A stretch of 64,000 bases of DNA from the NCBI GenBank assembly GCA_043810775.1, contig JBDRNU010000007.1, forward strand, positions 5,050-69,049. Direction: 5' to 3'. The DNA is from an archaeon (lineage in GTDB: Archaea > Nanobdellota > Nanobdellia > Pacearchaeales > GW2011-AR1). The notes beneath the pieces were generated by a model, which saw only the letters and a program-made list of their open reading frames with translations, had not been told where the DNA came from and ran no database searches. The position numbers and the translations under genes were made by a program. Below, one piece after another: positions 7,532 to 56,267 of this stretch; positions within the stretch are counted from its first letter, which is position 1, and the number at the start of each line of letters is the position of its first letter.

Positions 7532-7568
7532 TTTGATAATGTTTATAAACTTATTATCATATCTAATT

Positions 7569-7582
7569 TTATAAACCTTACT
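7569..7582. promoter_or_regulatory. Second copy of the 14-mer TTATAAACCTTACT in the 72-bp divergent promoter region of the filament locus
   Basis: Exact match to 3179-3192. Contains the palindromic TATA core TTTATAAA. Lies between the divergent starts 7531 (-) and 7604 (+). Confidence 0.4.
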
Positions 7583-12157: not shown

Positions 12158-12158
12158 A

Positions 12159-13103
12159 ATGAATTCAAAAGCCCAGATGTTTACAATGTTTGCAATATCA
12201 ATTCTTATTCTGCTTTTTGTATCTTATAGTGTCTATACTTTAGCCCAGGATAGAAAGGCAATAAAAATAAGAGTCACTACTATGGATAGTTTTCTTTCAT
12301 CCATAGAGCAAGATCTCGAAAGGCAGCTGTATATTTATGGTTTTAGATCACTAATCATAGCTGAAGATTATGTTTCAACAAAAGGAGAGTATATTCCTGA
12401 TGTAAATGAATTTTTCAATCTAACTTTTTACAATGAAACAGTTTACGAAAAAAATTATACTGAACTAATTTCAGGCGCAAACTATCCTTATATCCTTTCA
12501 AAAATTAACAAAGCCTCTTCAAAAATAAATGTTGAAATCTTGCTGACTGATATAAATATTTCTGTGGCTCAGGAAGATCCCTGGCACGTGGTTGTTATTT
12601 TCCAGGCAAACCTGACAATGCGCGATAAAGCTGGCCTTGCATACTGGAATAAGACAGAAGTGATAAAATCCTATATTCCTATTGAAGGATTTGGAGAGCC
12701 TGTTTATATAGTCAAGACAAAATCATTTTTATTAGATAAGTCAAAAATAAATAAAACTTTATATGATGGGAATTACAACTCTGCAGGAGATCGCTCCAAT
12801 CTTACCAGTCATGTTATTTATGGCCTTTATGCAGAAAATCCAGATGCCCCTAGTTACTTGCAGAGATTAGAGGGGAAAATTTCAGATTCAAGCCCAAATG
12901 GAATTGAGAGATTATTATATATTCCAGATTTGAGCTTGTATGAAGACCAGGGTGTTCAAGTTTTTGACGGAAAAAGTGTTGTTGACCATGTTTATTTTTC
13001 TTCAGGGTTTACAGGTGGCTCTCAAATTTCAGGAACAGGAATTCCTGCTGGTTGGAGTTGGTTTATTATTGACTCAAATCATGACGATGAAAAGTATACT
13101 TAA
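12159..13103 (+). CDS. Pilin-like protein with class III signal peptide
   Basis: MNSKAQMFTMFAISILILLFVSYSVY. Starts 1 nt after the upstream stop. Confidence 0.6.
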   Translation: MNSKAQMFTMFAISILILLFVSYSVYTLAQDRKAIKIRVTTMDSFLSSIEQDLERQLYIYGFRSLIIAEDYVSTKGEYIPDVNEFFNLTFYNETVYEKNYTELISGANYPYILSKINKASSKINVEILLTDINISVAQEDPWHVVVIFQANLTMRDKAGLAYWNKTEVIKSYIPIEGFGEPVYIVKTKSFLLDKSKINKTLYDGNYNSAGDRSNLTSHVIYGLYAENPDAPSYLQRLEGKISDSSPNGIERLLYIPDLSLYEDQGVQVFDGKSVVDHVYFSSGFTGGSQISGTGIPAGWSWFIIDSNHDDEKYT

Positions 13104-17403: not shown

Positions 17404-18678
17404 TCACTCACCTGCAAATTCTATCATCTTAAAAATAGAATATTCCTTAAGTTTTTCCCTTCCTTTTAGCTCTGGAAGCTCAATAATAAACGCAATTTCC
17501 ACAATTTCCCCGCCCAGTCTCTCAATTAGCTTGCACGCAGCTTGTGCAGTTCCTCCAGTAGCAATTAAATCATCAACAAGCAGGACTCTCTGCCCGGGCT
17601 TGATAGCATCCTTATGAACCTCAATAGAGTCAGTTCCATACTCTAAGACATACTCCTGTCTCTCAACCTCACTAGGAAGCTTGCCGGGTTTTCTTAGCGG
17701 AACAAATCCTACACCAAGCTTCTCAGCCAGCATTCCCCCAAATATAAAACCTCTTGACTCAATTGCAGCTACAACGCCAATCTGCTTATTTTTGTATCTC
17801 TGGTAAAAAATTTCAGTTACCCTCTTTAGCCCTTCAGGGTCTTTTAGTAAAGTAGTTATGTCGCGAAACATAACTCCTTGTTTAGGCCAGTTAGGAATTG
17901 TTCTTATCCTGCTTTTCAAAAAATCCTGGTCTTTTCCCGAAAGTTTTTCTATGCTTTTTATAATTAATTTTTTAACTTTTTCTGAATTAGAATTCATTAT
18001 CTTCATAATTTCTTCCCAAGATACTGGAGCTTCATCTTGTTTCCAGCAGTCATAGTCAGTTGACATTGCAATTACACCATATTCAATCCCAGTTTCTTTT
18101 GCAAGAATAGCTTCAGGACTAGTTGACATATTAATTACATCTGCACCCCACTGTCTGAATATATTGCTTTCAGCTCTTGTTGAAAATCTTGGCCCTTCAA
18201 TTGTAACTACAGTTCCAACTTTATGGTGTTTAATTCCAAGTTCTTCGCATGCAGCTATAATCTGCTCCCTAATCTCTTTAGAAAAAGGTTCAGCAAGACT
18301 TACATGATTTATTCCTTTTTGAAAGTCATCATAAAAAGTTATTTCCCTATGTCTGGTAAAATCAATTAAGTCAGAAAGAATAACAAAATCCTCTCTCTGA
18401 ATTTCTTGTTTTAAGCTTCCTACCGCAGTTGTTGCAATAATATGCGAGCAACCTTCTTTAGCTAGCGCAAAAATATTAGCCCTGTTATTAACTTTAGTTG
18501 GAGTAATCTCATGATTCTTGCCGTGTCTTGAGAGAATACAAACCTCAGTTCCAGATATTTTTCCACAAACCAAACAGCTTGAAGGCTTGCCATATGGAGT
18601 TATAATTTCTTTTTCCTCATAATTCTCAACTAATTTAGGGTCCTCAAGTCCACTACCCCCAATAATTCCAATTTTCAT
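17404..18678 (-). CDS. mtnP/apt: Bifunctional fusion: 5'-methylthioadenosine/purine nucleoside phosphorylase (N-terminal) + adenine phosphoribosyltransferase (C-terminal)
   Basis: 424 aa. Residues 1 to ~248 are MTAP-like (MKIGIIGGSGL..., TIEGPRFSTRAES, VINMSTSPEA). Residues ~252-424 are APRT-like (LKSRIRTIPNWPKQGVMFRDITTLL, PRPP loop VLLVDDLIATGGTA). Confidence 0.9.
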   Translation of the reverse strand: MKIGIIGGSGLEDPKLVENYEEKEIITPYGKPSSCLVCGKISGTEVCILSRHGKNHEITPTKVNNRANIFALAKEGCSHIIATTAVGSLKQEIQREDFVILSDLIDFTRHREITFYDDFQKGINHVSLAEPFSKEIREQIIAACEELGIKHHKVGTVVTIEGPRFSTRAESNIFRQWGADVINMSTSPEAILAKETGIEYGVIAMSTDYDCWKQDEAPVSWEEIMKIMNSNSEKVKKLIIKSIEKLSGKDQDFLKSRIRTIPNWPKQGVMFRDITTLLKDPEGLKRVTEIFYQRYKNKQIGVVAAIESRGFIFGGMLAEKLGVGFVPLRKPGKLPSEVERQEYVLEYGTDSIEVHKDAIKPGQRVLLVDDLIATGGTAQAACKLIERLGGEIVEIAFIIELPELKGREKLKEYSIFKMIEFAGE

Positions 18679-18746: not shown

Positions 18747-20099
18747 ATGAAAATCCCTCATAAAAATCAAATAAGAAAGCCGACAAAGACACTTTCAGGA
18801 GTAACTCCAATTGCAGTTATGTCCAAGCCTAGAAAATGCTCTCACGGAACCTGCTTATACTGTCCTTCGCTAGAAGTTCCCCAATCTTATACGCCTTTAT
18901 CTCCTCCTGTAATCAGAGCTAAGATGCTTAATTATAATCCTTACGAGCAAGTTTGCTCTAGGCTAAAGGCCTTTAAGCTCATGAATCATCCAACAGAAAA
19001 AATCGAGCTAATAATAATGGGCGGAACTTTTCTGGCATTTCCTTACAAGTATCAGGAAAATTTTATTAAGCAATGCTACGACGCTTTAAACTCGAAAAAA
19101 TCTCACAATCTAGCTCAATCAAAAAAGCTAAATGAAAAAGCAAAGCATCGCTGTGTTGCCCTAGCTATGGAGACTCGTCCAGATTACTGCACCAATAAAC
19201 TTGTAAAGCAAATGTTAAAGTTCGGAGTTACAAGAGTTGAGCTTGGCGTTCAGGCTATTTCAGATAAAATTTATAAAAAAGTAAATAGAGGTCATACAGT
19301 CAAAGATGTAATCCTTGCCACTAAACTTCTCAAAGATTCAGGTTTTAAAGTAGGCTATCATATAATGCCTGGCCTTCCTTCAAGTAATCCTAAACTAGAC
19401 CTAAAAATGTTTAAAGAGCTTTTTTCAGATGAAAACTATCGTCCAGACCAGCTTAAAATATATCCCTGTCAGGTCATTAAAGGTTCAGCTCTGGAATCTA
19501 TGTACTTGCAGGGAAAATACAAGCCTTATACAAAAACTCAAACAGAAAAATTGCTGATTCAGATGTTTAAAGTTATTCCAGAATATACCCGAGTTATGAG
19601 AGTTATGAGGGAAATTCCCCCGGTATTTTTAAAAGCCGGAACAATTAGAATTGATTTGCGAAAAGATGTAGAAGCCTATCTAAGAAAGAAAAATATCAAA
19701 CTCAAAGAAATTCGCTTTAGGGAAATTGGATTTTCTGGCTCAAAAGACAGGAAAATCCAAATCAAAACTATAAATTATAATGCTAGTGGTGGAAAGGAAA
19801 TATTTATTCAGGCAGTTAATAAGGATAATATTATTTTTGGCTTGCTTAGGTTAAGAATTCTTAGAGATAGAGCTTTTATTCGAGAGCTTCATATTTATGG
19901 TAAATCTGCAGAAATTGGTAAGAAAGGAAAAATACAGCATACAGGTATTGGCAAGTCTCTGCTAAAAACAGCAGAAGAGCTAGTTAAAAAAGCTAAAATT
20001 AAAGATTTGTATATTATTTCAGGAGTGGGAGTCCGCGAGTATTATCGCAAGTTAGGCTACAAACTAAAAGATGAATATATGTTTAAGGAGATAGTTTAA
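18747..20099 (+). CDS. elp3: Elp3-family radical SAM / GNAT acetyltransferase (tRNA wobble-uridine modification)
   Basis: 450 aa. TLSGVTPIAVMSKPRKCSHGTCLYCP Fe-S motif. Radical SAM core (RVELGVQAISDKIY). C-terminal GNAT-like domain (HTGIGKSLLKTAEE). Confidence 0.85.
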   Translation: MKIPHKNQIRKPTKTLSGVTPIAVMSKPRKCSHGTCLYCPSLEVPQSYTPLSPPVIRAKMLNYNPYEQVCSRLKAFKLMNHPTEKIELIIMGGTFLAFPYKYQENFIKQCYDALNSKKSHNLAQSKKLNEKAKHRCVALAMETRPDYCTNKLVKQMLKFGVTRVELGVQAISDKIYKKVNRGHTVKDVILATKLLKDSGFKVGYHIMPGLPSSNPKLDLKMFKELFSDENYRPDQLKIYPCQVIKGSALESMYLQGKYKPYTKTQTEKLLIQMFKVIPEYTRVMRVMREIPPVFLKAGTIRIDLRKDVEAYLRKKNIKLKEIRFREIGFSGSKDRKIQIKTINYNASGGKEIFIQAVNKDNIIFGLLRLRILRDRAFIRELHIYGKSAEIGKKGKIQHTGIGKSLLKTAEELVKKAKIKDLYIISGVGVREYYRKLGYKLKDEYMFKEIV

Positions 20100-20111
20100 T
20101 AATTTCTATTA

Positions 20112-20357
20112 TTATTCTAAATTTATGCCTAAAATTTCGGCTATTAAGAATATGCCACCTATTACTAATAAAAATATTCCAATAGCAAGCATTAATTTTC
20201 TTCCCTTATTTTTTCCCAATTTTTCTTCAAAACTCTTGCCTTTAAACCCCTTGGGAATTGTTATGGTATGAGATTTAGAAAAGTAACTTCTAAAAATTAT
20301 TATTGCCAGTCCAATAACTATATTAATAATACCTCTTATTATATTCGAGCTAATCAT
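20112..20357 (-). CDS. Small membrane protein (two TM helices)
   Basis: 81 aa. Hydrophobic N- and C-terminal helices separated by a basic loop. Confidence 0.45.
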   Translation of the reverse strand: MISSNIIRGIINIVIGLAIIIFRSYFSKSHTITIPKGFKGKSFEEKLGKNKGRKLMLAIGIFLLVIGGIFLIAEILGINLE

Positions 20358-20434
20358 ATTAGTTAAATAAATTCATTTCTTTATAAATTTTAACTTAATC
20401 AGACAATTTAAAAAATTACAAGAAAAAAATAAAA

Positions 20435-20881
20435 TTAAGGAACTTCGTAACTGTCCATTATATCACACTGAAATACATCTGTTCCGTCAGGGTCTTTGAT
20501 TATAGGAGCAATCTTAACAAACTCTCCAGCTGCAAGCTGTACTCCTGACAGCACTATTGTCTTTGTCTCAAATATATCTAAATCATCTGAAACAGTTCCA
20601 TTATTCACTATACTGTCACTTCCGCCTGAACTCTTTATTACAACAATCTTGTAAAGTCTGCCCTCTCCAACACCTCTCTTAACAGTTATATTAGCATCAA
20701 CCCCATTATTTTGAGCGCTCGTTATATCCATACTAAGAGTAAAGCAGTCAGCAGATAAGGTTCCAGTTTCAGTTCTCTGAATCAAAGGGCTAATTACTTG
20801 CCAGATAATAATTACTGCAGTTATTGATAGAAGTATAATTAAGATAACAGTAACAATCTCGCTAACACCTTTTTTATTCAT
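20435..20881 (-). CDS. Archaeal type IV pilin-like protein (class III signal peptide), unlinked to the main locus
   Basis: MNKKGVSEIVTVILIILLSITAVIIIWQV. 148 aa. Confidence 0.7.
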   Translation of the reverse strand: MNKKGVSEIVTVILIILLSITAVIIIWQVISPLIQRTETGTLSADCFTLSMDITSAQNNGVDANITVKRGVGEGRLYKIVVIKSSGGSDSIVNNGTVSDDLDIFETKTIVLSGVQLAAGEFVKIAPIIKDPDGTDVFQCDIMDSYEVP

Positions 20882-20923
20882 ATTTAATGCCTCTTTTTAT
20901 TATTAATAATTTGAATTTATACT

Positions 20924-20937
20924 ATATAAACTTTACT
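20924..20937 (-). promoter_or_regulatory. Promoter-like element related to the filament-locus 14-mer (minus strand AGTAAAGTTTATAT)
   Basis: 12 of 14 positions match TTATAAACCTTACT. Lies 43-56 nt upstream of pilin ATG 20881. Confidence 0.3.
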
Positions 20938-20957
20938 ATCTCAATGGAAGTTTATTT

Positions 20958-22646
20958 TCACCTATGACCAAACCAAAACTCATTTCTGTCTTTATTATTA
21001 AGCTTGCAGAATCCAACTCTTTCAAACTGGATAATATCTTCACTCTTTAGTATGGAAATTCCAGATTCAGCCAGCCCCTCCACCCAGTTGCCTTCAGGCA
21101 TCAGAATCTTGGCATTTACTCCTTCTGAAACCCACTGAATTTTTTGAATATCTTTTCTGTCAGTGCCCTTGAACTTTGCTTCCAGCTTGCCGTCTTTTTC
21201 AATTTTTTTTCCAAGCTTAATATTAAAAAGATGCATTAATCTAATTTCCTGTCCTTTGAATTTTTCAAAATCCTCCCGCGAAATAAAAATCTTGCTGATT
21301 TTTACAGTCCGAGTCTCTTCTTTTTCAGGATGAACCTTTATATCCACGCTGCTTATTCCAATTTTTCCCAGCTCTTTATTTAGCTTTATCTCAATAGGGT
21401 CAGGAACAAAATAATATCTATACACTACAGGGTCAAGTTTTTTCCTGTTTATAGCATAAAGCGAGTCAACTGGCACAATTATATCATTTTCATTTAATCC
21501 TATGCTTTCAACAAACTCCCTTATTGATTCTGCAAAAATCCCCCTGTTCTTTAAAGAGTGAATGCTCCAGGTTCTTGGGTCATCCCATCCCATGAATTTC
21601 CCGCTTTCAACCTCTTTCTGAGCCTTGCTCTTAGATATCTTTGCGCCAACTCCTTCTAATTGAACTAATCCTGTATGAATTATTACCGGTGATTTCCACT
21701 TAAATATTTCCCAAATGTATTTTTCCATTTCAGTTTCAATCATAAGGTCCTTTCCCCTGATAATATGGGTAATTTTAAGCAAATGGTCATCTACTGCCCA
21801 GGAAAATTCCAGCATCGGCCAGACTCTATATTTTTTTCCAACTCTCGGATGCTCCTTGTCAGAAATCCTGAAAATAACCCTGTCCCGAAATGCTGGATTT
21901 GGATTCTGCATATCAGTTTTTATTCTTAAGGTAAAATCCCCCTGCTTAGCTTTAAACATTTTCTTCCACCTTTTTTTCTGCTCACTAACTGGAAACTGTC
22001 GGCAGCTGCACTCTACTCCTTTTGCTCGGTTTTCTCTAAGTTCTGCTTGAGGACAGCTGCAAACATAGGCTTTTCCTTTTTTAATTAATTCCTCAGCATA
22101 TTTATAATAAGTTTTCAGCCTAGAAGACTTGTAAATAATTTTTTTGTCATATTTAACTCCAAGCCACTTAAATGATTCCTGAATAAGATTGTATGCATCT
22201 TTATGCAGCCCTTTTGCATCACTTCCAATTGTGTCATCAAATACAAAAATAGTTTTTCCCTTGTAAGCTTCACCATAAATTGCATTTAGCAAATAAGTTT
22301 TGGCATTTCCAATATGCAAGTCCCCTGAAGGAAACGGTGCCAGCCTCAGAACTATCTTTCCTTTAACAGCATCAGGCAATGGTGCAAGTTCCTTGTCTTT
22401 TTTTTCAGGCTTTACAAGCAGGTCTTTGATTTTTTCAAGTTCAGATTCAAGTTTTTCTTTATTCAAGGAATTAACTTGCTTAACACTCTCTTTAATCAAG
22501 GGCATAATCTCTTTAATTTGTTCTTTCTTCAGGCCCTCTTTAAATAATCTTCCCAAAACCTTGTCTTCTCTGGCTTTTCCATATGAGGTGGCATTTTCAA
22601 TAGCATATGCATAAATCTTATTTTTAAAATTATCTAATTTTTCCAT
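20958..22646 (-). CDS. gltX: Glutamyl-tRNA synthetase (archaeal type)
   Basis: 562 aa. HIGH motif (PSGDLHIGNAKT). KMSKS-type loop (GAKISKSK). Archaeal GluRS-like C-terminal domains. Confidence 0.92.
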   Translation of the reverse strand: MEKLDNFKNKIYAYAIENATSYGKAREDKVLGRLFKEGLKKEQIKEIMPLIKESVKQVNSLNKEKLESELEKIKDLLVKPEKKDKELAPLPDAVKGKIVLRLAPFPSGDLHIGNAKTYLLNAIYGEAYKGKTIFVFDDTIGSDAKGLHKDAYNLIQESFKWLGVKYDKKIIYKSSRLKTYYKYAEELIKKGKAYVCSCPQAELRENRAKGVECSCRQFPVSEQKKRWKKMFKAKQGDFTLRIKTDMQNPNPAFRDRVIFRISDKEHPRVGKKYRVWPMLEFSWAVDDHLLKITHIIRGKDLMIETEMEKYIWEIFKWKSPVIIHTGLVQLEGVGAKISKSKAQKEVESGKFMGWDDPRTWSIHSLKNRGIFAESIREFVESIGLNENDIIVPVDSLYAINRKKLDPVVYRYYFVPDPIEIKLNKELGKIGISSVDIKVHPEKEETRTVKISKIFISREDFEKFKGQEIRLMHLFNIKLGKKIEKDGKLEAKFKGTDRKDIQKIQWVSEGVNAKILMPEGNWVEGLAESGISILKSEDIIQFERVGFCKLNNKDRNEFWFGHR

Positions 22647-22743
22647 TAATACATAAGAAAAAACACTTTATTAAAGATTTTATAACTACTATCTAGAGGC
22701 TACATACAGAAAGATTTATAAATATTAAAGTTATATTAAAACA

Positions 22744-23334
22744 ATGACATCTACTACTGATTGGAATGACCAGCTTATTAAATGGTATGATAGCCAGAAA
22801 GATTATGCAACAATTAAAGAATTAGCAGAAGCAACTGGAATTCCTAGGTCTACTCTTAGTGATTATCTCAATAAAAAAGCAACTAATCTTAAGAGAGTAG
22901 CTGATAAAAGAAAAGATTTATTATACAGAATCACAGGATTAGATGTTTTCAGAACTGGAGCACCATTAGAAGAAGACTCTAAGCCTTACAGTGAAGTTGG
23001 AGGTTATGAGCAGTTAATGGAAAAGTTTTCAGCAGCTGTCAGTGAATTATCTCAAATTGAGAAAATACTTTCCCAGAATTATCCAGAGAGAGTTAAGCAG
23101 ATAACTGCAAAACAAAGAGCATCTGATATTGTTGAATTATTTAAGGATGCAGCAGGATTAATATTATCTTTTAATACAGCAAGTAACAATGAAATTCAAA
23201 TTTTAATGGATAAATTAAAGGAAAACAGGGAAGTATATATGACCATAGTCAGGGCAGTTGGAGCATATGACCAAGAAAAACCAGAGCATGTTAGACCCAT
23301 ACTTAAATTACTCCCAGATAAACTAACAAAATAA
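22744..23334 (+). CDS. Putative HTH DNA-binding protein (first gene of the GHKL cassette)
   Basis: 196 aa. Helix-turn-helix-like segment TIKELAEATGIPRSTLSDYLNKK; the rest is helical. Stop and next start form TAAAATG. Confidence 0.5.
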   Translation: MTSTTDWNDQLIKWYDSQKDYATIKELAEATGIPRSTLSDYLNKKATNLKRVADKRKDLLYRITGLDVFRTGAPLEEDSKPYSEVGGYEQLMEKFSAAVSELSQIEKILSQNYPERVKQITAKQRASDIVELFKDAAGLILSFNTASNNEIQILMDKLKENREVYMTIVRAVGAYDQEKPEHVRPILKLLPDKLTK

Positions 23335-23335
23335 A

Positions 23336-25030
23336 ATGCCAAAATATGAAGATGTAAAGTTTGGAGAAAAAGGAGCTAGCAGGGCTCTTCTTCAGATAGC
23401 TAAACTTTATGATGCTGAGAGTGTTGTCAGAGAATATCTTACAAATTCATATGATGCTGCAATAGAAGGACTTCTTTTAAATGCAAGAGTAAGTGTAATT
23501 CCTGAACAAAAAAGATTAATATTCAGTGATAATGGCTGTGGAATGAGCCTTGAAAAACTAACATCATTAAGGTCAAGAATTGGTGAATCAGATAAAGTGG
23601 AGAGAGAAGATTTAAGGGGAAACAAAGGTTTAGGAATACTATCTTTTGCATCTGTAGGTGACATGGTGCATATAGTCTCAAGAGAAGCAGGAAATCCAAA
23701 TCAAGTTTATGGATATATGCAGTTTATAAATAAAAGCAATATAATTAAGGCATTTTCTGAGGCTGAAGAATTAGATATGGATAAGTTAGACCAGTTAGGA
23801 GGGTATTTTGATTTTGGAACAAGAATAATAATTGACTTAATAGACCCATATCATTTTGAAAAAAGAAAAGGAAGACAAAGTTTTGGTTCAGGAACATTTG
23901 GCCAGGCAAATCTGGTAAACTTACTATCAAGATTATACACACCAGCCTTAAGAAAACAAGATATATCTATTCTTGTAGAAAGAAAAAAAGATTTATTAAG
24001 CGGCAGAAAAACAAATGCAAAGCAGGTTGAACCAATAGAGTACAAAGGTGATATTCTTTTAGAAACTGAATTGGAATTTCAGGACATGGATAAGAAAATT
24101 GGACAAGATAAAAATCTAAAACTAGAATGTCTTTTGCTTTTTAACCCAAAGGCAGATACAAGCAAAGTAGCTGTATATTCAAGAAATGTATTAGTAAATA
24201 ATTCAGTAACTTTAATTCCAGGTTTTGAAAAGAACAAATTTTGGGGTTGCGGGAAGCTTAGTGGTTATGTAAATGATGAATTTGTAGACCTTAAATTAGC
24301 AAGAAAAGATATAGATACTCAATCAAGGGAATTTAGAATTTGGCTTGGTGGAATCGATCAGATTGAAGAACAACTTGGAAAAACAGTAGCAGATAGAATT
24401 TCAAGAGAGCCAAAAGATAAACATAAGCAGGATGAAAGAGTCAAGAGAGTATGGGATGCAATTACAGATACTTTAAAAAATCTTACACCACTGTATGATA
24501 CCCAATTATACGTAAGAGCAGGAAATAAAGGTGTGTTAAGAAGAGTTAGGGGAGTATCACCATCAATAGGTACTACTGATAATAAACAAAAAGACAAGAT
24601 TAATGATGATCCTTCTAAAGGAAAGCCAAGAAGAAAAAACAAAGTAAAAGGAAAAAAAGGCGGATTGTACGAGCCTGATGAAGGAGGAGAAGAAAAAAAA
24701 GTAGCACCAAAAACTAAAACTATAATTGAATGCCCTATACTATCTCGTTTTTCAGAAGAGGAATCTCATCTAAGAAGCAAGTTTGATACTAAATTAGGGG
24801 AGCCTGCAATTTATATTAGCAGTATTCATGAGGATTATCTTAGAAGTTTAAAAGATGAAAATAGCCAGTATAGATACCTTCTATACCATACATCAAAAGA
24901 ATTAGCCCACATAGAAGCAGCAAATATTCCAGAAGGATTGGTAATCACAAAAGAAGAAATTGCCAAAAATACTCTTCTTAGAGCAGAAGAAATTTATTTT
25001 CAGGCTATTTCAGCACTGAATATAAGATAA
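23336..25030 (+). CDS. GHKL-superfamily ATPase (Bergerat fold, MORC/HATPase_c_3-like) with an uncharacterised lysine-rich C-terminal half
   Basis: 564 aa. N box REYLTNSYDA, G1 box SDNGCGMS, G2 box GNKGLGILSFASVGD, followed by GTRIIIDL. Confidence 0.8.
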   Translation: MPKYEDVKFGEKGASRALLQIAKLYDAESVVREYLTNSYDAAIEGLLLNARVSVIPEQKRLIFSDNGCGMSLEKLTSLRSRIGESDKVEREDLRGNKGLGILSFASVGDMVHIVSREAGNPNQVYGYMQFINKSNIIKAFSEAEELDMDKLDQLGGYFDFGTRIIIDLIDPYHFEKRKGRQSFGSGTFGQANLVNLLSRLYTPALRKQDISILVERKKDLLSGRKTNAKQVEPIEYKGDILLETELEFQDMDKKIGQDKNLKLECLLLFNPKADTSKVAVYSRNVLVNNSVTLIPGFEKNKFWGCGKLSGYVNDEFVDLKLARKDIDTQSREFRIWLGGIDQIEEQLGKTVADRISREPKDKHKQDERVKRVWDAITDTLKNLTPLYDTQLYVRAGNKGVLRRVRGVSPSIGTTDNKQKDKINDDPSKGKPRRKNKVKGKKGGLYEPDEGGEEKKVAPKTKTIIECPILSRFSEEESHLRSKFDTKLGEPAIYISSIHEDYLRSLKDENSQYRYLLYHTSKELAHIEAANIPEGLVITKEEIAKNTLLRAEEIYFQAISALNIR

Positions 25031-25031
25031 A

Positions 25032-25778
25032 ATGAAAACTGAATTAAAAAAAATAATTGAAAAAGACAAGCAAAGTAAATTAAATTTTATCAGAGAAGAA
25101 ATTATCAACCCATTATACGAAGGAAAGATTTCTGATATAGAAAAGCTTGAAGTATTTTTAAAATTAATAGGTGAAAGCGTTAAAGACGGAACTCTTGAGC
25201 AGAGAATTCAGGCATTTAATAAATTTACTTCAGATGATGAAGCAATTAAATCTAAAGCAAGAGAAATAATTGAATCAGTCAAACCTAAAGAACCAAAAGT
25301 AATAGATTACCAGGTATATTGTAAAGCTATGGAAAATGGATATTCTGTTGAAGACTTAAAAAAATCATATCCAGACACTACATCAAGGCAATGGGGAGGA
25401 TTGAAGACAGCTTATCAGAAAAAAAAGAAAAAAGCTGAGGAAAAATTAGAAGATGCTCCAGCATCAGATGATTTAACATTTGAAGAATTTAGAAAACTGA
25501 TAGATCAAGGAAATCCTTATGAAACAATTATAAAAAATTATGCAACTGATCAAAAAGTAAAACTAAAAATTACAAGTTTTAAAGCTAAACTTACACAGCA
25601 GAAAAAACAAGAGCAAATTAACAATGATCCAAGGGAACCCCTCCATTATGGATTATACTGCAAATTAAGAAAGGAAGGATATTCAGAAGAAGAAATGTTA
25701 AAAGTCTATAAATCTCCTAAACCAAATTCTATGGTAGGGTTTAGAAGGCAATATAAATCAAGAGAATTAGGGAAATAA
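25032..25778 (+). CDS. Repeat protein with three copies of a ~45-aa module (YCK-x-x-x-x-GYS-type), unknown function
   Basis: 248 aa. Internal repeats DYQVYCKAMENGYSVEDLKKSY..., FEEFRKLIDQGNPYETIIKNY..., HYGLYCKLRKEGYSEEEMLKVY... TAAAATG junction with the upstream gene. Confidence 0.6.
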   Translation: MKTELKKIIEKDKQSKLNFIREEIINPLYEGKISDIEKLEVFLKLIGESVKDGTLEQRIQAFNKFTSDDEAIKSKAREIIESVKPKEPKVIDYQVYCKAMENGYSVEDLKKSYPDTTSRQWGGLKTAYQKKKKKAEEKLEDAPASDDLTFEEFRKLIDQGNPYETIIKNYATDQKVKLKITSFKAKLTQQKKQEQINNDPREPLHYGLYCKLRKEGYSEEEMLKVYKSPKPNSMVGFRRQYKSRELGK

Positions 25779-26123
25779 TTACTTCCCTTCAAACCTGTTT
25801 AGTTTTTTTTCAACCAAATCAATTCTGTCAATTAGCTTATCCACTCTTCTTAGCATTGATTCAAGCTTGAATTCAATATCTTCAACCTTGTTTTTCATGC
25901 TAGACTCTAATCCTGGTTTTTCAAGCTTGCTTCCAGAACTTGAGGCAAGTGCTCCAAGAAAATCCATGCCGCTGGTATCTTCACTAGAAACACTTGTTTT
26001 AGTTAAATCTAATTCTTCAACTTCTCTTTCAGGAGCCTTAATAATCCCCCTTTTATGAAGCATGCTTAAATCAATAACATCAGCCTTCTTTTTCTTCCAT
26101 AACATAACTATCTTAGCAATCAT
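25779..26123 (-). CDS. Hypothetical coiled-coil protein
   Basis: 114 aa. C-terminal heptad-like segment (VEDIEFKLESMLRRVDKLIDRIDLVEKKLNRF). Confidence 0.5.
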   Translation of the reverse strand: MIAKIVMLWKKKKADVIDLSMLHKRGIIKAPEREVEELDLTKTSVSSEDTSGMDFLGALASSSGSKLEKPGLESSMKNKVEDIEFKLESMLRRVDKLIDRIDLVEKKLNRFEGK

Positions 26124-26141
26124 AATTTTATAAATATATCG

Positions 26142-26738
26142 TTAATCTATATTGACAAAATCAGAAGAGTAATTAGGAATGCAGTCTCTTAAATTACCCT
26201 GATAATTTACCCAGTCAATGCCCAAATCATCCAAATTTATAAGTTTATAGGATTTATATTCATTAAATGATTTCACCAAATCACTAATTGTATCAAATGG
26301 CTTGCTGTTTTTTAATCTGTCTACATATCTCCACTTCTCGCTCTCTTTATAAATAAAAACAGCATGCCCGTATTTTCTTGTTCCTTGTGCATCATTTACT
26401 AAATTTTCACCATCTCTTTTATAAGGTTCCATATCCAGTATTAAGGGAGGATAGTCATTATCAGCAAGAACTCCTGCAGCAAGTATAGCCATTCCATCAC
26501 AGTCTTCCATCATTGTTTCAGCTGTTTTTGCCGGAGCCTGCCAGTAATCTTCAGCATTATGCATGTATAAATCATGGGAATATGCAACTGCATCAAGAAA
26601 ATAAGCGCAATCATCAGGAGTTTTAACAGTTTCTTGATATCTCTTGAAATAATCAAAATCCTCACTATGCCCTTTTAAAGGAAGCATGCTCAAAGCTGAA
26701 CATACTAATACAGCTGCCAAATTCTTTATTTTCCCCAT
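26142..26738 (-). CDS. Secreted protein, possible transglutaminase-like/papain-fold cysteine peptidase
   Basis: 198 aa. Signal peptide (MGKIKNLAAVLVCSALSMLPLKG). Candidate Cys-His-Asp triad context (EDCDGMAILAAG, YGHAVFIY, RYVD). GGAGGT SD upstream. Confidence 0.4.
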   Translation of the reverse strand: MGKIKNLAAVLVCSALSMLPLKGHSEDFDYFKRYQETVKTPDDCAYFLDAVAYSHDLYMHNAEDYWQAPAKTAETMMEDCDGMAILAAGVLADNDYPPLILDMEPYKRDGENLVNDAQGTRKYGHAVFIYKESEKWRYVDRLKNSKPFDTISDLVKSFNEYKSYKLINLDDLGIDWVNYQGNLRDCIPNYSSDFVNID

Positions 26739-26788
26739 AATTATACCTCCATGCAGGGAATTTTTAAATTTATCGCTAGCCAGAATAT

Positions 26789-27331
26789 CTACCCATTAGA
26801 AATCCTCAGGTTTTTACCGCATTCAAATAATCTTCCAACAACTCCTTGTTTTCCAAAATACTCAAAATAATCATGAAATAACCAATCAGTTTCTCCCTCG
26901 TTTTTCACTATTGATTTAACTTCTCCAATAAATAAATCATGGTCACCTAGTTCAAGTATCTCTGTTAATTCACACTCTACACTCAGTGGAGACTCTTTAA
27001 TTAGAGGAACTCCAGTAATTCCTTTTTGTTTTGTGAATTTAGTCACCTCAAACTTATTTACATCTCTTCCAGAAACTAAACCGCAATAATCAGTTTCCTT
27101 AACATAATCTGCCCCCATATAATTAATTCCAAATTTTCTTTGCTCGCTTATTAATTTATTACTATGTCTTGAAGGTCTAATTCCAATATACATTAATCTA
27201 TCTGATAATTGTCCAACATAACTTATAGTTATAATATTTGGTTCTTCATAAGTTCCACAAGTAACTAGTGTCACTGGTTTAGGACCAGGAATTACCCCTA
27301 ATCTTAACTCCTGAGGATTTATTATCTTCAT
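26789..27331 (-). CDS. Flavin reductase-like FMN-binding protein (flavoredoxin family)
   Basis: Track ORF is 26789..27370. The probable start is ATG 27331, forming a TAAAATG junction with the upstream radical SAM gene. Motifs: VTLVTCGT...PNIITISY, IGIRPSRHS, DHDLFIGEV. Confidence 0.7.
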   Translation of the reverse strand: MKIINPQELRLGVIPGPKPVTLVTCGTYEEPNIITISYVGQLSDRLMYIGIRPSRHSNKLISEQRKFGINYMGADYVKETDYCGLVSGRDVNKFEVTKFTKQKGITGVPLIKESPLSVECELTEILELGDHDLFIGEVKSIVKNEGETDWLFHDYFEYFGKQGVVGRLFECGKNLRISNG

Positions 27332-27332
27332 T

Positions 27333-28784
27333 TTAAAACCCACTAATAATTCTAGAAGGATCAACACCAAGTTTATCTTTAAAATCTAAAGGAAGTTTGC
27401 TTTCATAAATATCTGCCATAATTGTAACTCTTTCAATATCTAATTCATGCATCTTTTCTCTTGGAATTCCTCCTTCATATTCAAAAACTGGAAAGGTTTC
27501 TCCCTTCCATCCAGAATAATTCCAATCAACAATTTTTAATCCATATTCATCTCTTGAGTTAAATAGAGCAGATCCAGGAGATGGAATAACAATATAACTT
27601 TCAGCATAATCCATTATTCCCTCACTCATTAGTCTGCAAATTGCATCAGTAGTATATCTTTGAGTTGACTCTGATTCGCCAGGAAGCCAAGATAACCAAT
27701 TTCCAAAATATCTCATTCCCTGTTCTTTTACCATTTCTCCTGCTTCTTTAATGACTTTTGCTCTCAGGCCTTTTCTTGCTAAATTTAATACTTTTTGGTC
27801 AGCACTTTCAGCTCCTACCTGCACCTCTTTGCACATTCCAGAGTCTCCTAATTCTTTTAATAATTCAGGTCTTTGTAATATGCTTTCAGCATTTCCCTGA
27901 ACAAAATAAGTAAGCCTTCCCTGAAATCTATCTTTCAGTTCCCTGACTAATTTAGAAGAATGTTCAGGATTTCTGAAAAAGTTTTCATCTCCAATATATA
28001 TAAATTTAGTTCCAAAATCATCTACTAGCTCCTCAACATAGGAAATAATCTTTTCCAAATCTCCCACAAAATGCTTATTCTCTAGCTGATTAATACTTGA
28101 ACAAAAAGTACATGGCTTTGTTTTACCACATCCAAGAGTAGTATAAATTCTTCCAGCAGGAAGAAAATCAACATTCATTAAGCTATTATCTGGTTGTGGA
28201 AAAAGTGAAGGCTCTTCAGTACCTTGAAAATAATCTTCTGGAATATCTCTTTCTGAAACTACTGATTTTTTTACATTTGCTTCAACAATCCAAGGAAGAA
28301 CTTTATGACCTTTGCCACGTGCATAAATATCAATTGGTGAGTCTTCTTTTTCTGTAAATCCACTTGGATGAGGTCCTCCAAGAACTACTGTAAGTTCCGG
28401 GTTAGCTTCTTTCGCCTGAACAGTTAGCTTTTCTGCAAGAGGAACTCCACAAGTATGGCTATAAAAACCTAGAAAATCACTATCTTTTGATTTTTCTAGC
28501 ACACCACTAACAAATTCTTCTTCACTAAGAGTAGCCCAAGGAGCAAAATAATCTACTATATGGTTTCTCTTCTTAAGTATCCCTCCTAAATGTAGCAATC
28601 CTATGTTTTGATTTCCTAAATTAGCATAAAAAGGGAGCTCATCTTGCTTTAGTCCAACACTATTATCTGCAGCACGCGAAGCTAAATAAGCCCTCCAGAA
28701 CCTTTCGTGCTCTGGATGCTGTTTTGTTACAGGGTCCATATTTGCAACAAGCAATACTTTTTTACTCTTATTTGTCATTTTCAT
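27333..28784 (-). CDS. B12-binding-domain radical SAM protein
   Basis: 483 aa. N-terminal cobalamin-binding-like domain (KKVLLVANM..., VVLGGPHPSGF). Cys cluster TTLGCGKTKPCTFCSS. Radical SAM core (FIYIGDENFF). Confidence 0.8.
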   Translation of the reverse strand: MKMTNKSKKVLLVANMDPVTKQHPEHERFWRAYLASRAADNSVGLKQDELPFYANLGNQNIGLLHLGGILKKRNHIVDYFAPWATLSEEEFVSGVLEKSKDSDFLGFYSHTCGVPLAEKLTVQAKEANPELTVVLGGPHPSGFTEKEDSPIDIYARGKGHKVLPWIVEANVKKSVVSERDIPEDYFQGTEEPSLFPQPDNSLMNVDFLPAGRIYTTLGCGKTKPCTFCSSINQLENKHFVGDLEKIISYVEELVDDFGTKFIYIGDENFFRNPEHSSKLVRELKDRFQGRLTYFVQGNAESILQRPELLKELGDSGMCKEVQVGAESADQKVLNLARKGLRAKVIKEAGEMVKEQGMRYFGNWLSWLPGESESTQRYTTDAICRLMSEGIMDYAESYIVIPSPGSALFNSRDEYGLKIVDWNYSGWKGETFPVFEYEGGIPREKMHELDIERVTIMADIYESKLPLDFKDKLGVDPSRIISGF

Positions 28785-30430: not shown

Positions 30431-31816
30431 ATGACAGCAAGTGTAACAAAGATAATATCTGAAATATCAAAATATAATAAGGAGCCTTTAGAAGAGCATA
30501 AGCTTCGCTATGATTCTTCTTCTGAAACCTTGGAGCCGGTATATTTCTGGATTTTAGATAAAATGAATGATGATTTTGATGAAGTTGAAAAGCTGGTGGA
30601 TAACTTCACTTCCTCCCCGGGAAGCGGGCATTTTTCTGAGCTAATGGGAAAATCAACACACATGCAAAAAGAAGCAATGACCACCATGTCTACAATCAAC
30701 ACACTAATTAGAAGCATAATTAATATTATTTATGATTTAAAGGAATTTAAAATAAGGTTAGGTTATTATGATGCAGCAAACTCGAAAAATGAATCAGAAG
30801 CTCAAGCAGGAGTTCTTGGTTTAAAGCAGCTCTGGATGGATAATGTAGATATGAAAAGGGGAAATACTGCACTAAAAGCAATGGCAGCACAGTTTTCCTA
30901 TGTAACTGTAATTGACGCATTTATGGCTGCAAAATCAGCTGACGATGTTGATAAAATGGACCTAAATGACCGAGTTAAGAGATTTATAAAGCCAAGAATT
31001 CACGAATTTTTTGACTGGAAAAAGCGTTCAGAATCAGAACTCAAAAAAAGATACGAAATTGAAAAAACATATCTTAAAAGCCAGGTAAATTCTCTTAAAT
31101 TATATTCAAGGTGGGTAAAGCCTTACCTCAAAGCATCATCTCAGCTTGAAATGTCAGACCAAGAAAATCCAGCCCTGGTCACAGCTTTTAATACAATTGT
31201 TTTTCAGCTAACACTAATTGGGAAAAAACCTATTAAAGTTGACCAGTCAATCGTAGATGACGACCTTCCAAGAGCTTTCAAAAATGTAAAACTAAAAAGG
31301 AAATACTATTCATGTGTTTTAGTTGATTTTAATTTTAGGGGAATTCCTCAAAAAGCCGGACAGCACTATGTCTTTGGAGGGCGAGCTGAAGTTACTTTTA
31401 GAGGATATACACTGAATGACGACGAAATTAAAATGCTAAAACAGAAATTAGATGATTCTGACTTGCAAGAAGGGCTAAGATTAGCTGAAGGAGCAACTAG
31501 CGAATCTCTGGACCAATTACAAGAAGATATCGAAAAATTTATTGAGGAAGATTTTGAGGATAAAAAAGAAAAAAAATCCAGTGATGATACTGACCCATTT
31601 TCAGCTTTATTTTCAGGTCTATTCAAAAAATCAGGCAAAGAAGAAAAGAAAATAGATTCAGGAAAGATTGACAAAGTAAAGCCTGATAATCATGTTGAAA
31701 GCATAATCAGAATTCTTGCTGAAAAAAAAGTCAAAGACCAGTGTTTTGGCTTATTTAATAACTATAAAAAAGCCCATAATATGGCAAACTATCCTACTCC
31801 TTATGATTCCACCTAA
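30431..31816 (+). CDS. Hypothetical protein, largely helical with an acidic C-terminal region
   Basis: 461 aa. No motif recognised. The 3' end is duplicated downstream (see the repeat at 31782-31947). Confidence 0.65.
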   Translation: MTASVTKIISEISKYNKEPLEEHKLRYDSSSETLEPVYFWILDKMNDDFDEVEKLVDNFTSSPGSGHFSELMGKSTHMQKEAMTTMSTINTLIRSIINIIYDLKEFKIRLGYYDAANSKNESEAQAGVLGLKQLWMDNVDMKRGNTALKAMAAQFSYVTVIDAFMAAKSADDVDKMDLNDRVKRFIKPRIHEFFDWKKRSESELKKRYEIEKTYLKSQVNSLKLYSRWVKPYLKASSQLEMSDQENPALVTAFNTIVFQLTLIGKKPIKVDQSIVDDDLPRAFKNVKLKRKYYSCVLVDFNFRGIPQKAGQHYVFGGRAEVTFRGYTLNDDEIKMLKQKLDDSDLQEGLRLAEGATSESLDQLQEDIEKFIEEDFEDKKEKKSSDDTDPFSALFSGLFKKSGKEEKKIDSGKIDKVKPDNHVESIIRILAEKKVKDQCFGLFNNYKKAHNMANYPTPYDST

Positions 31817-36695: not shown

Positions 36696-36790
36696 TTTAC
36701 CTTTATTTTTCCTTCAATTTTCTTAAAATACATAGTATTTTAACCTTTATAAATCTTTCTATTTTGTTACTACTAGGTAGTTAATATATA

Positions 36791-53239: not shown

Positions 53240-53240
53240 T

Positions 53241-56222: not shown

Positions 56223-56267
56223 TCTTAAGGAAAGGTTTATATATTTCTTCCAATTTTAGGTAGCATA

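Follow-up and report, generated by a model that had tools for sequence, protein, structure and literature searches.

An undescribed three-gene system of DPANN archaea centred on an Hsp90-like GHKL ATPase

Three co-directional genes at 22744-25778 of the 64,000-nucleotide stretch of archaeal DNA analysed here (the window) constitute a real and undescribed three-gene system, inherited vertically by some DPANN archaea. Gene A (22744..23334) encodes a 196-aa protein with a putative HTH domain, gene B (23336..25030) a 564-aa Hsp90-like GHKL ATPase that founds a small family, and gene C (25032..25778) a 248-aa repeat protein; these genes, and all features located below, lie on the plus strand. The preferred reading, given a probability of about 40% and drawn largely from analogy with related enzymes, is that the three products are co-translated parts of a dedicated machine that would clamp, bridge or remodel DNA or a DNA-bound complex under ATP control, in a chromosomal function. 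PADLOC matches the trio to no system and the searchable literature yielded no description of it, in agreement with the preliminary description of this DNA, which could name no counterpart.

The cassette and its junctions are as first described. Both the A-B junction (23332..23338) and the B-C junction (25028..25034) read TAAAATG in the sequence, a stop-start arrangement with a 1-nt spacer. This word had been taken as a sign of obligate co-expression. It occurs in the window at chance level, however (36 found versus 33 expected), and the identical arrangement is used at further operon junctions of the window (12155 and from 53237), so that it reflects the operon style of the genome and carries no special signal. 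The comparative data support a co-expressed cassette whose genes travel together. The A-B gap is -11 to +2 nt in 14 of 18 tabulated loci; the exceptions are L010 (a gap of -43, given the ORF start chosen), L024 (where a frameshift splits B) and L004 and L020 (different gene order). An A homologue that lies 5' of B is always -43 to +2 nt from it, and nearly always overlaps it or stands 1-2 nt away. B-C gaps range from -4 to +90 nt. Upstream of A, the archaeal BRE/TATA promoter element GAAAGATTTATAAA (22709..22722) agrees at every position with a motif that is over-represented in the window (8 matches with at most one mismatch versus 1.5 expected; 0 of 100 shuffles reach 8). The box lies about 25 nt 5' of A, its TATA beginning 29 nt before the ATG, and 15 of 21 loci have a near-identical element 24-39 nt 5' of their A orthologue. 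Since a TATA 29 nt before the ATG has the standard archaeal TATA-to-start spacing, a leaderless or near-leaderless transcript is implied, its start being predicted from that spacing.

Thirty-five loci were fetched, and the next two counts come from the non-redundant informative loci among them. A homologue of A is present within the cluster in 27 of 28, and one of C in 20-21 of the approximately 23 with downstream sequence. The pairwise distances of A-B, B-C and A-C are strongly correlated (Mantel r 0.92, 0.82 and 0.79, respectively; 0 of 2000 permutations as high). In L004 and L020 the order is shuffled to B-Y-C-A, yet A, B and C remain linked. The co-conservation proposed in the preliminary description as a check thus holds. 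The A-B pair is the universal core, and the third gene is replaceable: in L029 its place is taken by a K/R/G-rich disordered protein, and in L010 by an ORF judged by eye to be methyltransferase-like, for which a family search gave no match. The B family is rare and small. An exhaustive phmmer search found 75 cluster representatives among 1.84 billion at E<1e-10 (142 at E<1e-3 and 22 at E<1e-30), mostly 500-560 aa and full length. Matches with genome titles come from nine MAGs of DPANN archaea and one of Methanosarcinales; cluster members are singletons and occurrence is patchy.

Both flanks were expected to be minus-strand housekeeping genes. This is true of the 5' flank, which is GluRS; the immediate 3' neighbour on that strand is an uncharacterised 114-aa ORF that corresponds to no known housekeeping gene. 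GluRS and the families f3, f7, f8, f18 and f25 are found again close to the cluster in genomes where B is only about 30% identical. The cluster lies in a region of housekeeping genes whose order is partly kept between deeply diverged genomes, and not in a variable island. A, B and C themselves are 26-33% identical, against 48-65% for neighbouring housekeeping genes, a much faster divergence that is equally typical of conflict genes and of lineage-specific structural proteins.

These observations bear on the framing of the trio as a conflict system. An undescribed defence against viruses or mobile elements, in which B would be sensor or motor, as in MORC/paraMORC restriction systems, A and C would recognise foreign DNA and the C-terminal domain of B (N495/H498) would act as effector, is rather unlikely. 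GHKL+S5 ATPases recur in R-M and defence operons (PMC2292703), and the fast divergence, the rarity and patchiness, and the variable third component would all fit such a role. So would L010, the Methanosarcinales locus, where MoxR-AAA and VWA genes, besides the methyltransferase-like ORF, run in one co-directional array with the cluster. Housekeeping flanks, partial synteny and the lack of viral or plasmid homologues nevertheless leave a defence role unsupported by context. No nuclease, helicase or methylase is recognised in the scanned flanking DPANN genes, GC content at the cluster is unremarkable, and the window contains no integrase or other mobile-element gene, no tRNA target and no compositional shift. 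B and A have no relatives among 2.9 million viral contigs; the plasmid collection gives none either, and phage records give N-domain matches only. The same searches, with the housekeeping synteny, speak against an integrated virus or plasmid module, serving for instance partition or replication control. That explanation is highly improbable, although the clusters of L009, L010 and L022 lie in long co-directional arrays of small unknown ORFs that have families f51-f53 in common, and B resembles certain phage proteins (see below).

B has the complete Bergerat ATP-binding fold that had been claimed for it. The N-domain (aa 1-185, 23336..23890) matches Pfam HATPase_c_3 over aa 25-140 (E=1.1e-10, 42.1 bits versus a cut-off of 25) and contains all four ATP-binding motifs of GHKL proteins. 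These are the E/N box of motif I, REYLTNSYDA (aa 32-41, nt 23429-23458; E33/N37/D40); the DxGxG of motif II, SDNGCGMS (aa 64-71, nt 23525-23548; D65/G69); the Gly-rich ATP lid of motif III, GNKGLGILSFASVGD (aa 95-109, nt 23618-23662; G95/G100); and the GT of motif IV, GTRIIIDL (aa 161-168, nt 23816-23839; G161/T162). Across 59 sequences E33, N37, G69, G100 and G161 never vary, and D40, D65, G95 and T162 are at least 95% conserved. On this conservation B is judged to be a catalytically intact GHKL ATPase.

The C-terminal 350 aa or so of B had been called unrecognisable; they comprise a middle domain of the Hsp90 type, then a flexible linker and finally a novel domain of about 100 aa. An AF2 model built from a 59-sequence MSA is confident (pLDDT 88.8, pTM 0.82), its only low-confidence stretches being 412-421 and 434-438. 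The middle (transducer) domain (aa 186-400, 23891..24535), recognised with Foldseek against Hsp90-type folds, includes a catalytic-loop-like segment, GKLSGYVNDEFVDLKLARKDID (aa 306-327, nt 24251-24316), followed by a long helical hairpin (aa 331-382). R323 within this segment is kept in 56 of 59 family members, whereas K307 is kept in only 30. The N and middle domains of Hsp90, HtpG, TRAP1 and GRP94 are the best fold matches of the model (approximately 400-430 columns, E from 6e-17 to 1e-14), with the MORC3 ATPase (5ix2) slightly below them (E=1.9e-14, 404 columns). The family profile also matches Hsp90 N-domains in the PDB (E=5e-15). The closest matches of B in sequence and modelled fold are therefore Hsp90/HtpG, and B is best described as Hsp90-like rather than as MORC proper.

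The 'MORC-like' label that B first received is imprecise, given these matches and the fact that the MORC-specific S5 motif, GhXhhpXXRhl (Iyer, Abhiman and Aravind 2008, PMC2292703), was found as a regular expression in 0 of 59 family members. Nor is the sequence match to MORC3 significant (E=0.24). Resemblance to MORC and paraMORC proteins lies in the architecture: the Foldseek match to MORC3 identifies a GHKL plus S5-fold module in B, which is followed by a family-specific C-terminal extension. In both cases, too, the ATPase is associated in an operon with a putative DNA-binding protein, and an ATP-driven dimeric clamp on DNA is, by analogy, the likely logic. ParaMORCs and prokaryotic MORCs have SF2 helicases, DNA methylases and restriction-fold or HNH endonucleases as neighbours (PMC2292703). 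No such neighbour was found among the flanking genes scanned in the non-redundant loci, the methyltransferase-like ORF of L010 aside, and the A-B-C cluster, unlike those genes, is vertically inherited amid housekeeping genes and not laterally mobile.

Likeness to Hsp90/HtpG is more extensive. B shares the GHKL N-domain with its four motifs, a middle domain of the same fold, the overall size and the three-part layout. The Arg of its 'G-x-[IV]-[DN]-x3-L-x-L-x-R' loop finds its counterpart in the HtpG loop 'GVIDCPDLPLNVSR': in a targeted comparison with one genuine HtpG sequence (P0191), the family profile places R323 on the Arg of 'LPLNVSR', scoring 10-11 bits, a value that none of 500 shuffles reached. 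Identity to Hsp90/HtpG is nevertheless only about 15%, and the C-terminal domains are unrelated by sequence. Pfam HSP90 (PF00183) gave no report on B at E<=1, and the NCBIfam models HtpG NF003555 and PRK14083 scored 16 bits versus a cut-off of 371 and 31.4 versus 455, respectively. The Hsp90 signature PROSITE PS00298 is Y-x-[NQHD]-[KHR]-[DE]-[IVA]-F-[LM]-R-[ED]. B reads Y25-DAESVV-R32-E33 here, one residue shorter and without the N-K-E-I-F positions, and shares with this region only a Y...RE..(S/T)N..DA frame. Hsp90 genes are not known to lie in an obligate operon with genes for HTH and repeat proteins, as B does.

Another reading makes B the archaeal counterpart, in function, of Hsp90/HtpG; A and C would be its co-chaperones or adaptors, and the HTH of A would be purely autoregulatory. 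HtpG is reported absent from Archaea (PMC1525184), which leaves a niche for an Hsp90 analogue. The family's best sequence and fold matches and its conserved Hsp90-type catalytic-loop Arg agree with such a function. We consider it improbable: besides the failure of the Hsp90 models to match and a C-terminal domain that in sequence matches no known one, the obligate, co-evolving partner A has a putative DNA-binding domain that is doubled in one lineage, and the very fast evolution and rarity of B are atypical for a general chaperone. Fast evolution and an archaeal host also set B apart from HtpG itself.

Beyond the middle domain, the flexible linker (aa 408-445, 24557..24670), which includes both low-confidence stretches of the model, carries the Lys-rich patch KGKPRRKNKVKGKKGG (aa 428-443, nt 24617-24664) that the preliminary description singled out. 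The patch is present and lineage-specific; in the family at large G/P/S make up 36% of the linker, whose net charge is basic (>=+3) in only 17 of 59 members. The C-terminal alpha/beta domain (aa 467-564, 24734..25027) defines a new family with the consensus motifs F..E...RSK and I.IN..H.DY. F472, N495, H498 and Y514 are at least 90% conserved; residue 495 is Asn in 58 of 59 members and Ser in the window copy. Neither the profile of this domain nor its members matched PDB sequences, Pfam or any nuclease family, and Foldseek alignments of the whole B chain that include it have an rmsd of about 18-21 A with no gain in TM-score. The near-invariant N/H/Y residues hint at a candidate catalytic or ligand site, which the preferred reading does not explain. 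As the effector of a defence system the domain is made less plausible by the lack of a nuclease match and by the loss of the near-invariant Asn from the window copy.

Other GHKL systems resemble B less closely. The preliminary description had named orthology to MutL or Topo VI-B as an outcome that would undo its proposal; Pfam, NCBIfam and Foldseek show neither. MutL matches at the N-domain only (28.6 bits versus a cut-off of 391), and its Pfam domains (DNA_mis_repair transducer and C-terminal) are missing from B. The conserved basic residue of B is Arg, and the corresponding residue of MutL is Lys. Topoisomerase VI subunit B, with its transducer/H2TH domains, gave no Pfam match and is not among the best 50 fold matches; the neighbours of B encode the HTH protein of 196 aa and the repeat protein instead of Spo11/Topo VI-A. 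Phage RIIA-like proteins share the GHKL+transducer fold (Foldseek viral matches 1e-11 to 1e-12). PHROG phrog_6203 matches aa 21-336 of B at 2.8e-10 and RIIA PHROGs match its N-domain, similarities that count for a viral module. They are confined to domains, however: the proteins differ from B in length and in their C-terminal parts, the cluster lacks a RIIB-like partner, and viral collections yielded no B-family member.

Among the known defence systems of PADLOC-DB v2, the match of A is confined to the HTH of mad1 (1.8e-5) and that of B to about 100 N-terminal residues of TmtA; C matches nothing. TmtA, which we take to be Tiamat, is hit by two models at aa 25-120, the HATPase_c_3 region (1.4e-5 and 1.8e-4); the match spans about 100 of 1300-1650 model positions, and its architecture and partners are unrelated to those of B. 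A BbrUII/HgiDII restriction enzyme model also matches the N-domain weakly (4.4e-8). Both weak matches can be counted for a defence role, against which stands the want of any PADLOC system match.

A consists of a putative Cro/C1 (Xre)-type HTH domain (aa ~5-72, pI 9.3; HTH core aa 24-42, nt 22813-22869) and a helical domain at the C-terminus (aa ~85-196, pI 5.3) that represents a new family and for which PDB and Pfam searches gave no match. For the HTH first reported in this gene, the Pfam scores over aa ~19-49 fall just short of their cut-offs: 22.8 bits for HTH_3 (cut-off 23, E=9.6e-5) and 21.6 bits for HTH_26 (cut-off 22, E=2.6e-4). HTH_3, HTH_31 or HTH_26 matches recur in 5-6 of 21 orthologues. 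W7 and T64 are invariant in the family alignment (A4). The lineage with a doubled HTH is represented by the L010 orthologue. Autoregulation of the operon could be the sole role of this domain.

A strictly coupled HTH-GHKL pair also recalls CapK-CapS, in which a GHKL kinase and an HTH repressor are likewise encoded together. The kinase, CapK, is of the SpoIIAB type and has STAS domains; the repressor, CapS, is a STAS-wHTH protein (PMC13373217). A signalling switch of this type, in which B would remodel or sequester the transcription factor A (and C) in an ATP-dependent manner and so control genes elsewhere, has this precedent for GHKL-HTH regulatory pairs and is in keeping with a universal A-B core and a varying third gene. 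It is distinctly improbable, as Pfam detects a STAS domain in none of A, B and C, the fold of B is the N+M of Hsp90/MORC and not that of a SpoIIAB-type kinase, and the flanks differ among loci, with no conserved regulated operon found downstream.

C had been described as three copies of an approximately 45-aa module. The three modules are confirmed by HMM, and a helical, non-repeat N-terminal region (aa 1-85) that the description had omitted precedes them. Copy 1 (aa 86-131, nt 25287-25424; module HMM E=1.9e-18) and copy 3 (aa 199-244, nt 25626-25763; E=9e-19) are clearly related (z=10.3). Copy 2 (aa 146-180, nt 25467-25571) is degenerate in pairwise comparison (z about 1.5), yet significant by the family module HMM (E=5.6e-9). 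Orthologues carry one to three copies of this novel helical module. C has no significant Pfam, PDB, PHROG or PADLOC match; in the PDB the module matches only a designed helical repeat. Repeats of this kind are typical of co-chaperones, a point in favour of a chaperone function. Compared with the HTH of A the module gives a probability of 0.4% and is not demonstrably an HTH. The repeat region has a pI of 9.4. A basic pI recurs in all three proteins (the HTH domain of A, the middle domain of B and the repeats of C), which is counted for a DNA-directed model; the non-conserved basic linker of B is counted against it.

The preferred reading, an ATP-gated machine acting on DNA, can be set out as follows. 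The N-domains of B would dimerise upon ATP binding and reopen after hydrolysis, like those of other GHKL+transducer enzymes, with R323 completing the active site. A would dock onto B by its acidic C-terminal helical domain, and its HTH would bring the B clamp to DNA. C would join the complex by its conserved N-domain, its variable number of basic modules providing multivalent, probably non-specific contacts with nucleic acid or partners. The net activity may resemble that of MORC and MutL. For the archaea that carry it, the system would then serve a lineage-specific chromosomal role, such as chromatin compaction or gene silencing, rather than belong to a mobile defence island.

The three genes form a compact forward-strand operon: A (22744-23334, 196 aa), B (23336-25030, 564 aa), which encodes the GHKL ATPase, and C (25032-25778, 248 aa). 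The A-B and B-C junctions alike read TAAAATG. In the preliminary description this shared stop-start arrangement implied obligate co-expression. Both junctions are indeed present, but the heptamer occurs in the window at chance frequency (36 found versus 33 expected) and also joins other gene pairs at 12155-12161 (+) and 53237-53243 (-); it therefore reflects tight operon packing, not a special signal, and is the general operon style of this genome. A single promoter precedes A. A perfect match to the BRE/TATA-type element GAAAGATTTATAAA lies at 22709-22722, its TATA beginning 29 nt before the ATG; in 15 of 21 related loci the A orthologue has a near-identical element 24-39 nt ahead of it. Similar motifs are enriched in the window (8 versus 1.5 expected), among them those at 36746-36759 (-), 56230-56243 and 7568-7581 (-), and appear to be the promoter consensus of the genome. 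With the transcript start placed by the usual archaeal TATA-to-start spacing, the operon would give a leaderless or near-leaderless mRNA. Scans for sigma-70 promoters and intrinsic terminators gave no more hits than chance would, which is normal in an archaeon. No RNA family was found by Rfam over 20000-28000, and a repeat scan of 22300-26300 gave only short AT-rich chance repeats, none operator-like or resembling attachment sites. The window, whose genes bear locus tags beginning ABIH72_, has about 33% G+C and shows no compositional break at the locus.

Related loci were collected by pattern scans with an 11-sequence alignment and analysed with our own ORF calls and iterative HMM searches. 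From GTDB species genomes the scans gave 10 loci, in nine DPANN MAGs (labelled Nanoarchaeota, Pacearchaeota, Woesearchaeota or 'uncultured archaeon') and one Methanosarcinales MAG; metagenomes supplied a further 25, and the pattern scan of 2.9 million viral contigs none. Linkage of the three genes is strict. A homologue of A lies within the cluster in 27 of the 28 non-redundant loci with upstream DNA present. At the sole exception, L023, an unrelated 99-aa ORF (L023:251-550) with a coiled coil and a hydrophobic helix replaces A; this contig is only 3.5 kb long, and A could lie elsewhere. The A-B gap is -11 to +2 nt in 14 of 18 tabulated loci. The other four are the Methanosarcinales locus L010 (-43 nt, with our own ORF start), L024, where a frameshift splits B, and L004 and L020, in which the order is X-B-Y-C-A and the three genes are still linked. 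C is found in 20-21 of about 23 loci with downstream sequence. A methyltransferase-like ORF (assigned by eye, with no family hit) takes its place at L010, and a Lys/Arg/Gly-rich disordered protein does so at L029 and L030. The L029 example (9650-10384, directly after B) has 244 residues, is apparently disordered and may be a functional substitute for C. Pairwise divergences are strongly correlated, with a Mantel r of 0.92 (A-B, n = 18), 0.82 (B-C) and 0.79 (A-C), values reached in 0 of 2000 permutations. A lack of co-conservation in related genomes would have been the second ground for refuting the preliminary description; the trio is clearly co-conserved. A second, weak B-like match on the unlabelled metagenome contig L027 (9108-10873), at a distance of about 6 kb, is no B paralogue but a DNA gyrase B gene, with the QTK loop and Toprim motifs in its sequence.

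B carries a Pfam HATPase_c_3 domain at residues 25-140 (E = 1.1e-10). In an exhaustive phmmer comparison with 1.84 billion cluster representatives, relatives number 142 at E < 1e-3, 75 below 1e-10 and 22 below 1e-30; almost all of them are 500-560 aa long and are matched over their full length; word-index searches with B and with C each found only the query itself. The family is real but small. In a 59-sequence alignment E33, N37, G69, G100 and G161 are invariant, and D40, D65, G95 and T162 are at least 95% conserved, so the ATP site is intact. An AlphaFold2 model built with this alignment is confident (pLDDT 88.8, pTM 0.82), with disorder confined to residues 412-421 and 434-438; prediction from the single sequence was useless (pLDDT 30). 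Foldseek comparison of the model with the PDB places HtpG, GRP94, Hsc82 and TRAP1 on top (E from 6e-17 to 1e-14), with some 400-430 columns aligned between B and the Hsp90 family, corresponding to the N and middle domains. Profile searches agree for the N-domain: the B family profile finds Hsp90 N-domains in the PDB at 5e-15, and in a 5.8-billion-protein set HtpG is the next-best family, through its N-domains only.

In the middle domain it is Arg323 (56/59), not Lys307 (30/59), that stands out as the conserved basic residue. The middle-domain profile pairs kVgvYskgVrVy...klsGyinenflkLtlgR with KLYNNQVFI...LLKGVIDCPDLPLNVSR of genuine HtpG. In a targeted test against one HtpG sequence, Arg323 aligns on the catalytic-loop arginine at 10-11 bits, a score reached by 0 of 500 shuffles (maximum 7.5). 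Alignment of the B family with one HtpG by hhalign was confined to the N-domain, and a sequence-profile search of the PDB with the middle domain gave nothing significant. Pfam HSP90 does not match B, which reaches 16 bits with the NCBIfam HtpG model (cut-off 371); B is therefore Hsp90-like and not a member of the HtpG family. The general view is that Archaea have no Hsp90; HtpG has been reported absent from them, and only divergent 'HSP90-like' proteins were noted (PMC1525184). An Hsp90-like chaperone working with co-chaperones is an unlikely reading of the trio.

The preliminary description called the ATPase MORC-like, and the fold bears this out in part: MORC3 is matched at 1.9e-14, at rank 29 among PDB structures. 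The Hsp90 family ranks first, however, Arg323 is conserved and aligns with the HtpG arginine, and the S5 motif GhXhhpXXRhl that defines MORC proteins (PMC2292703) occurs in 0 of 59 family members, so that B falls outside MORC proper. It is also not an orthologue of MutL or Topo VI B, the housekeeping GHKL enzymes named at the outset, as judged by Pfam, NCBIfam and Foldseek. A histidine kinase was likewise rejected for B, as was a CapK/CapS-type kinase pair for A-B.

Beyond the middle domain, B continues with a helical hairpin (residues 331-382), a Gly/Pro/Ser-rich linker and an alpha/beta C-terminal domain of about 100 aa. The linker is net basic in only 17 of 59 members, and on this comparison the lysine patch of the window protein is evidently lineage-specific. 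The C-terminal domain has near-invariant F472, N495, H498 and Y514 and matches nothing in the PDB (sequence profile) or Pfam; member-wise Pfam scans gave scattered weak hits only. Residue 495 (24818-24820) is serine in the window copy and asparagine, within the motif I.IN..H.DY, in 58 of 59 relatives, a substitution that may mark a functional change.

A contains a probable Cro/C1-type HTH at about residues 19-49 that scores just under the Pfam cut-offs; HTH families are matched in 5-6 of 21 A orthologues, and the domain is basic (pI 9.3). The acidic, helical C-terminal domain of A has no known relatives, and a profile search of the PDB with the A family gave nothing significant. A transcription-factor switch controlled by the ATPase is a slightly less probable account than the chaperone. 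C begins with a helical region of about 85 aa, followed by a basic repeat region (pI 9.4) with three copies of a module of about 45 aa, at residues 86-131, 146-180 and 199-244 (E = 1.9e-18, 5.6e-9 and 9e-19 with a family-derived HMM). Pairwise comparison leaves no doubt that the first and third copies are related (z = 10.3) and shows the second to be degenerate; orthologues carry one, two or three modules. The consensus, D.RP.LT...Y.KAR..GMT.E.IK.KF......QL.GF...Y, shows the helix-Gly-helix pattern of small HTH domains. It is on this pattern that the idea of an HTH rests, as comparison with the HTH of A by hhalign (0.4% probability) lends it no statistical support. The sole PDB similarity of the module is to a designed helical repeat protein; profile searches of the PDB with the C family and the module gave nothing significant, and member-wise Pfam scans of the module only scattered weak hits. 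The module is not confined to C: a 386-aa protein encoded at 42101-43261 (-) has an N-terminal segment, DFEHYCKLRDGGLEYQDISRVYSNVKK, that matches the module HMM (17.6 bits, i-E 1.4e-4 among 795 six-frame ORFs); beyond it come a predicted transmembrane helix and then a long stretch rich in Pro, Thr and Gln.

The operon lies in a housekeeping neighbourhood. Upstream of A, on the minus strand, is glutamyl-tRNA synthetase (GluRS); downstream of C, also on the minus strand, are a 114-aa uncharacterized ORF, a flavin reductase and a B12-radical-SAM protein. Across the loci the flanks are a heterogeneous mix of housekeeping and uncharacterized genes, with RtcB, an aminotransferase, a pilin-like protein and ELP3 among them. 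Of the DPANN flanking genes scanned, none was recognized as an integrase, nuclease, helicase or methylase. At the distantly related loci L008, L024-L026, L029 and L035, several neighbours from the window again lie no more than a few kb from the cluster. These are GluRS and the gene families f3 (461 aa), f7 (AP_endonuc_2-like), f8 (nucleotidyltransferase), f18 and f25; the exact insertion point of the cluster differs among loci sharing them. GluRS is 55% identical between the window and L008, and f3 and f8 are 48-53% and 60-65% identical to orthologues at related loci, whereas A, B and C reach only 26%, 32% and <30%. These comparisons indicate vertical inheritance in the same chromosomal district, with evolution about twice as fast as that of the neighbours. 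The f3 protein (30431-31816, +), about 50% identical in five related loci and often next to or near A-B-C, has no Pfam, NCBIfam or PDB-sequence match and is a conserved DPANN protein. Also in the window, a 424-aa fusion at 17404-18678 (-) joins a purine/uridine phosphorylase-family domain (PNP_UDP_1) to a phosphoribosyltransferase domain. Small co-directional ORFs of families f51, f52 and f53, with no Pfam match, recur upstream of the cluster (L009:4082-5313, L022:173-710, L023:3-254, L010:932-1117) and may be additional accessory genes. At L010 (6723-11507 and 1-4283), where the HTH domain of A is duplicated, the A-B pair belongs to an array of genes that all run in one direction and include a response-regulator protein, a 777-aa HTH_17 protein, the methyltransferase-like ORF, a MoxR-type AAA ATPase and a VWA protein; this setting differs from that at the DPANN loci and may resemble an island.

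For A-B-C, assignment to a prophage or plasmid was rejected. The plasmid collection holds no relatives, phage matches cover the N-domain only and the A family is absent from viral contigs; a mobile-element module is very improbable. Viral structure matches of the B model are generic (giant-virus Hsp90, RIIA, topo II ATPase). Apart from topoisomerases and MutL, prokaryotic GHKL+transducer ATPases have been described chiefly as restriction and defence components that move laterally (PMC2292703), and an undescribed defence system is the rival that deserves most thought. It would be suited by the fast evolution of A, B and C, the rarity of the family, variation in the third gene and conservation of the N/H motif in the C-terminal domain of B; the genomic context speaks against it and no effector is recognized, which leaves it doubtful. 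The scanned flanks show no restriction-modification neighbourhood of the paraMORC kind, and the system is not of the CapK/CapS type. PADLOC matches are domain-level only (the TmtA N-terminus at 1.4e-5 for B, the mad1 HTH at 1.8e-5 for A, nothing for C), and A-B-C belongs to none of its systems. The searchable literature, including that on Tiamat/TmtA and arCOG dark matter, holds no description of the trio, although absence there is no proof of novelty. The initial impression that it matches no named system therefore stands. The ATPase family, its C-terminal domain and the two partner families are new; the GHKL+transducer ATPase is of a known kind.

The reading preferred here, at a probability of roughly 40%, is that A-B-C clamps or remodels DNA under the control of ATP, in a chromosomal role specific to the lineage, and works most like Hsp90/MORC-type clamps. 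By analogy with the established behaviour of GHKL+transducer enzymes such as Hsp90, MutL, MORC and the type II topoisomerases, ATP binding would dimerize the N-domains of B and close the clamp, the middle-domain arginine would complete the active site, and hydrolysis would reopen the clamp. A would dock on B and target the clamp to DNA through its HTH, and C would add multivalent contacts.

More broadly, the trio can tentatively be viewed as a lineage-specific, vertically inherited DPANN nucleoprotein machine, in which a GHKL ATPase of the Hsp90 (Arg-finger) clade acts with an Xre-HTH adaptor and a tandem-module protein, both of new families. It might then be the first archaeal Hsp90-type ATPase system and either a chromatin organizer or ATP-gated DNA clamp of a new class or, no less new, a defence system with an unrecognized effector domain; the module of C would be a new small domain with further uses in the genome, as at the N-terminus of the membrane protein at 42101-43261. 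An Hsp90-like protein of confidently predicted structure, retaining the Hsp90-type arginine, is here tied into a co-evolving operon with two new protein families and surrounded by housekeeping genes, in DPANN archaea whose genomes are reduced and which depend on hosts. As a defence system it would be a new type with an unrecognized effector. Either way, three 'hypothetical' families acquire a testable joint role, and two new elements are defined, a module of about 45 aa and a C-terminal domain in which an Asn, a His and a Tyr are near-invariant. If the trio acts on DNA, it would offer the GHKL field a minimal three-part system in which to study the targeting of an Hsp90/MORC-type clamp, and would give these poorly understood archaea a lineage-specific chromatin or gene-silencing device.
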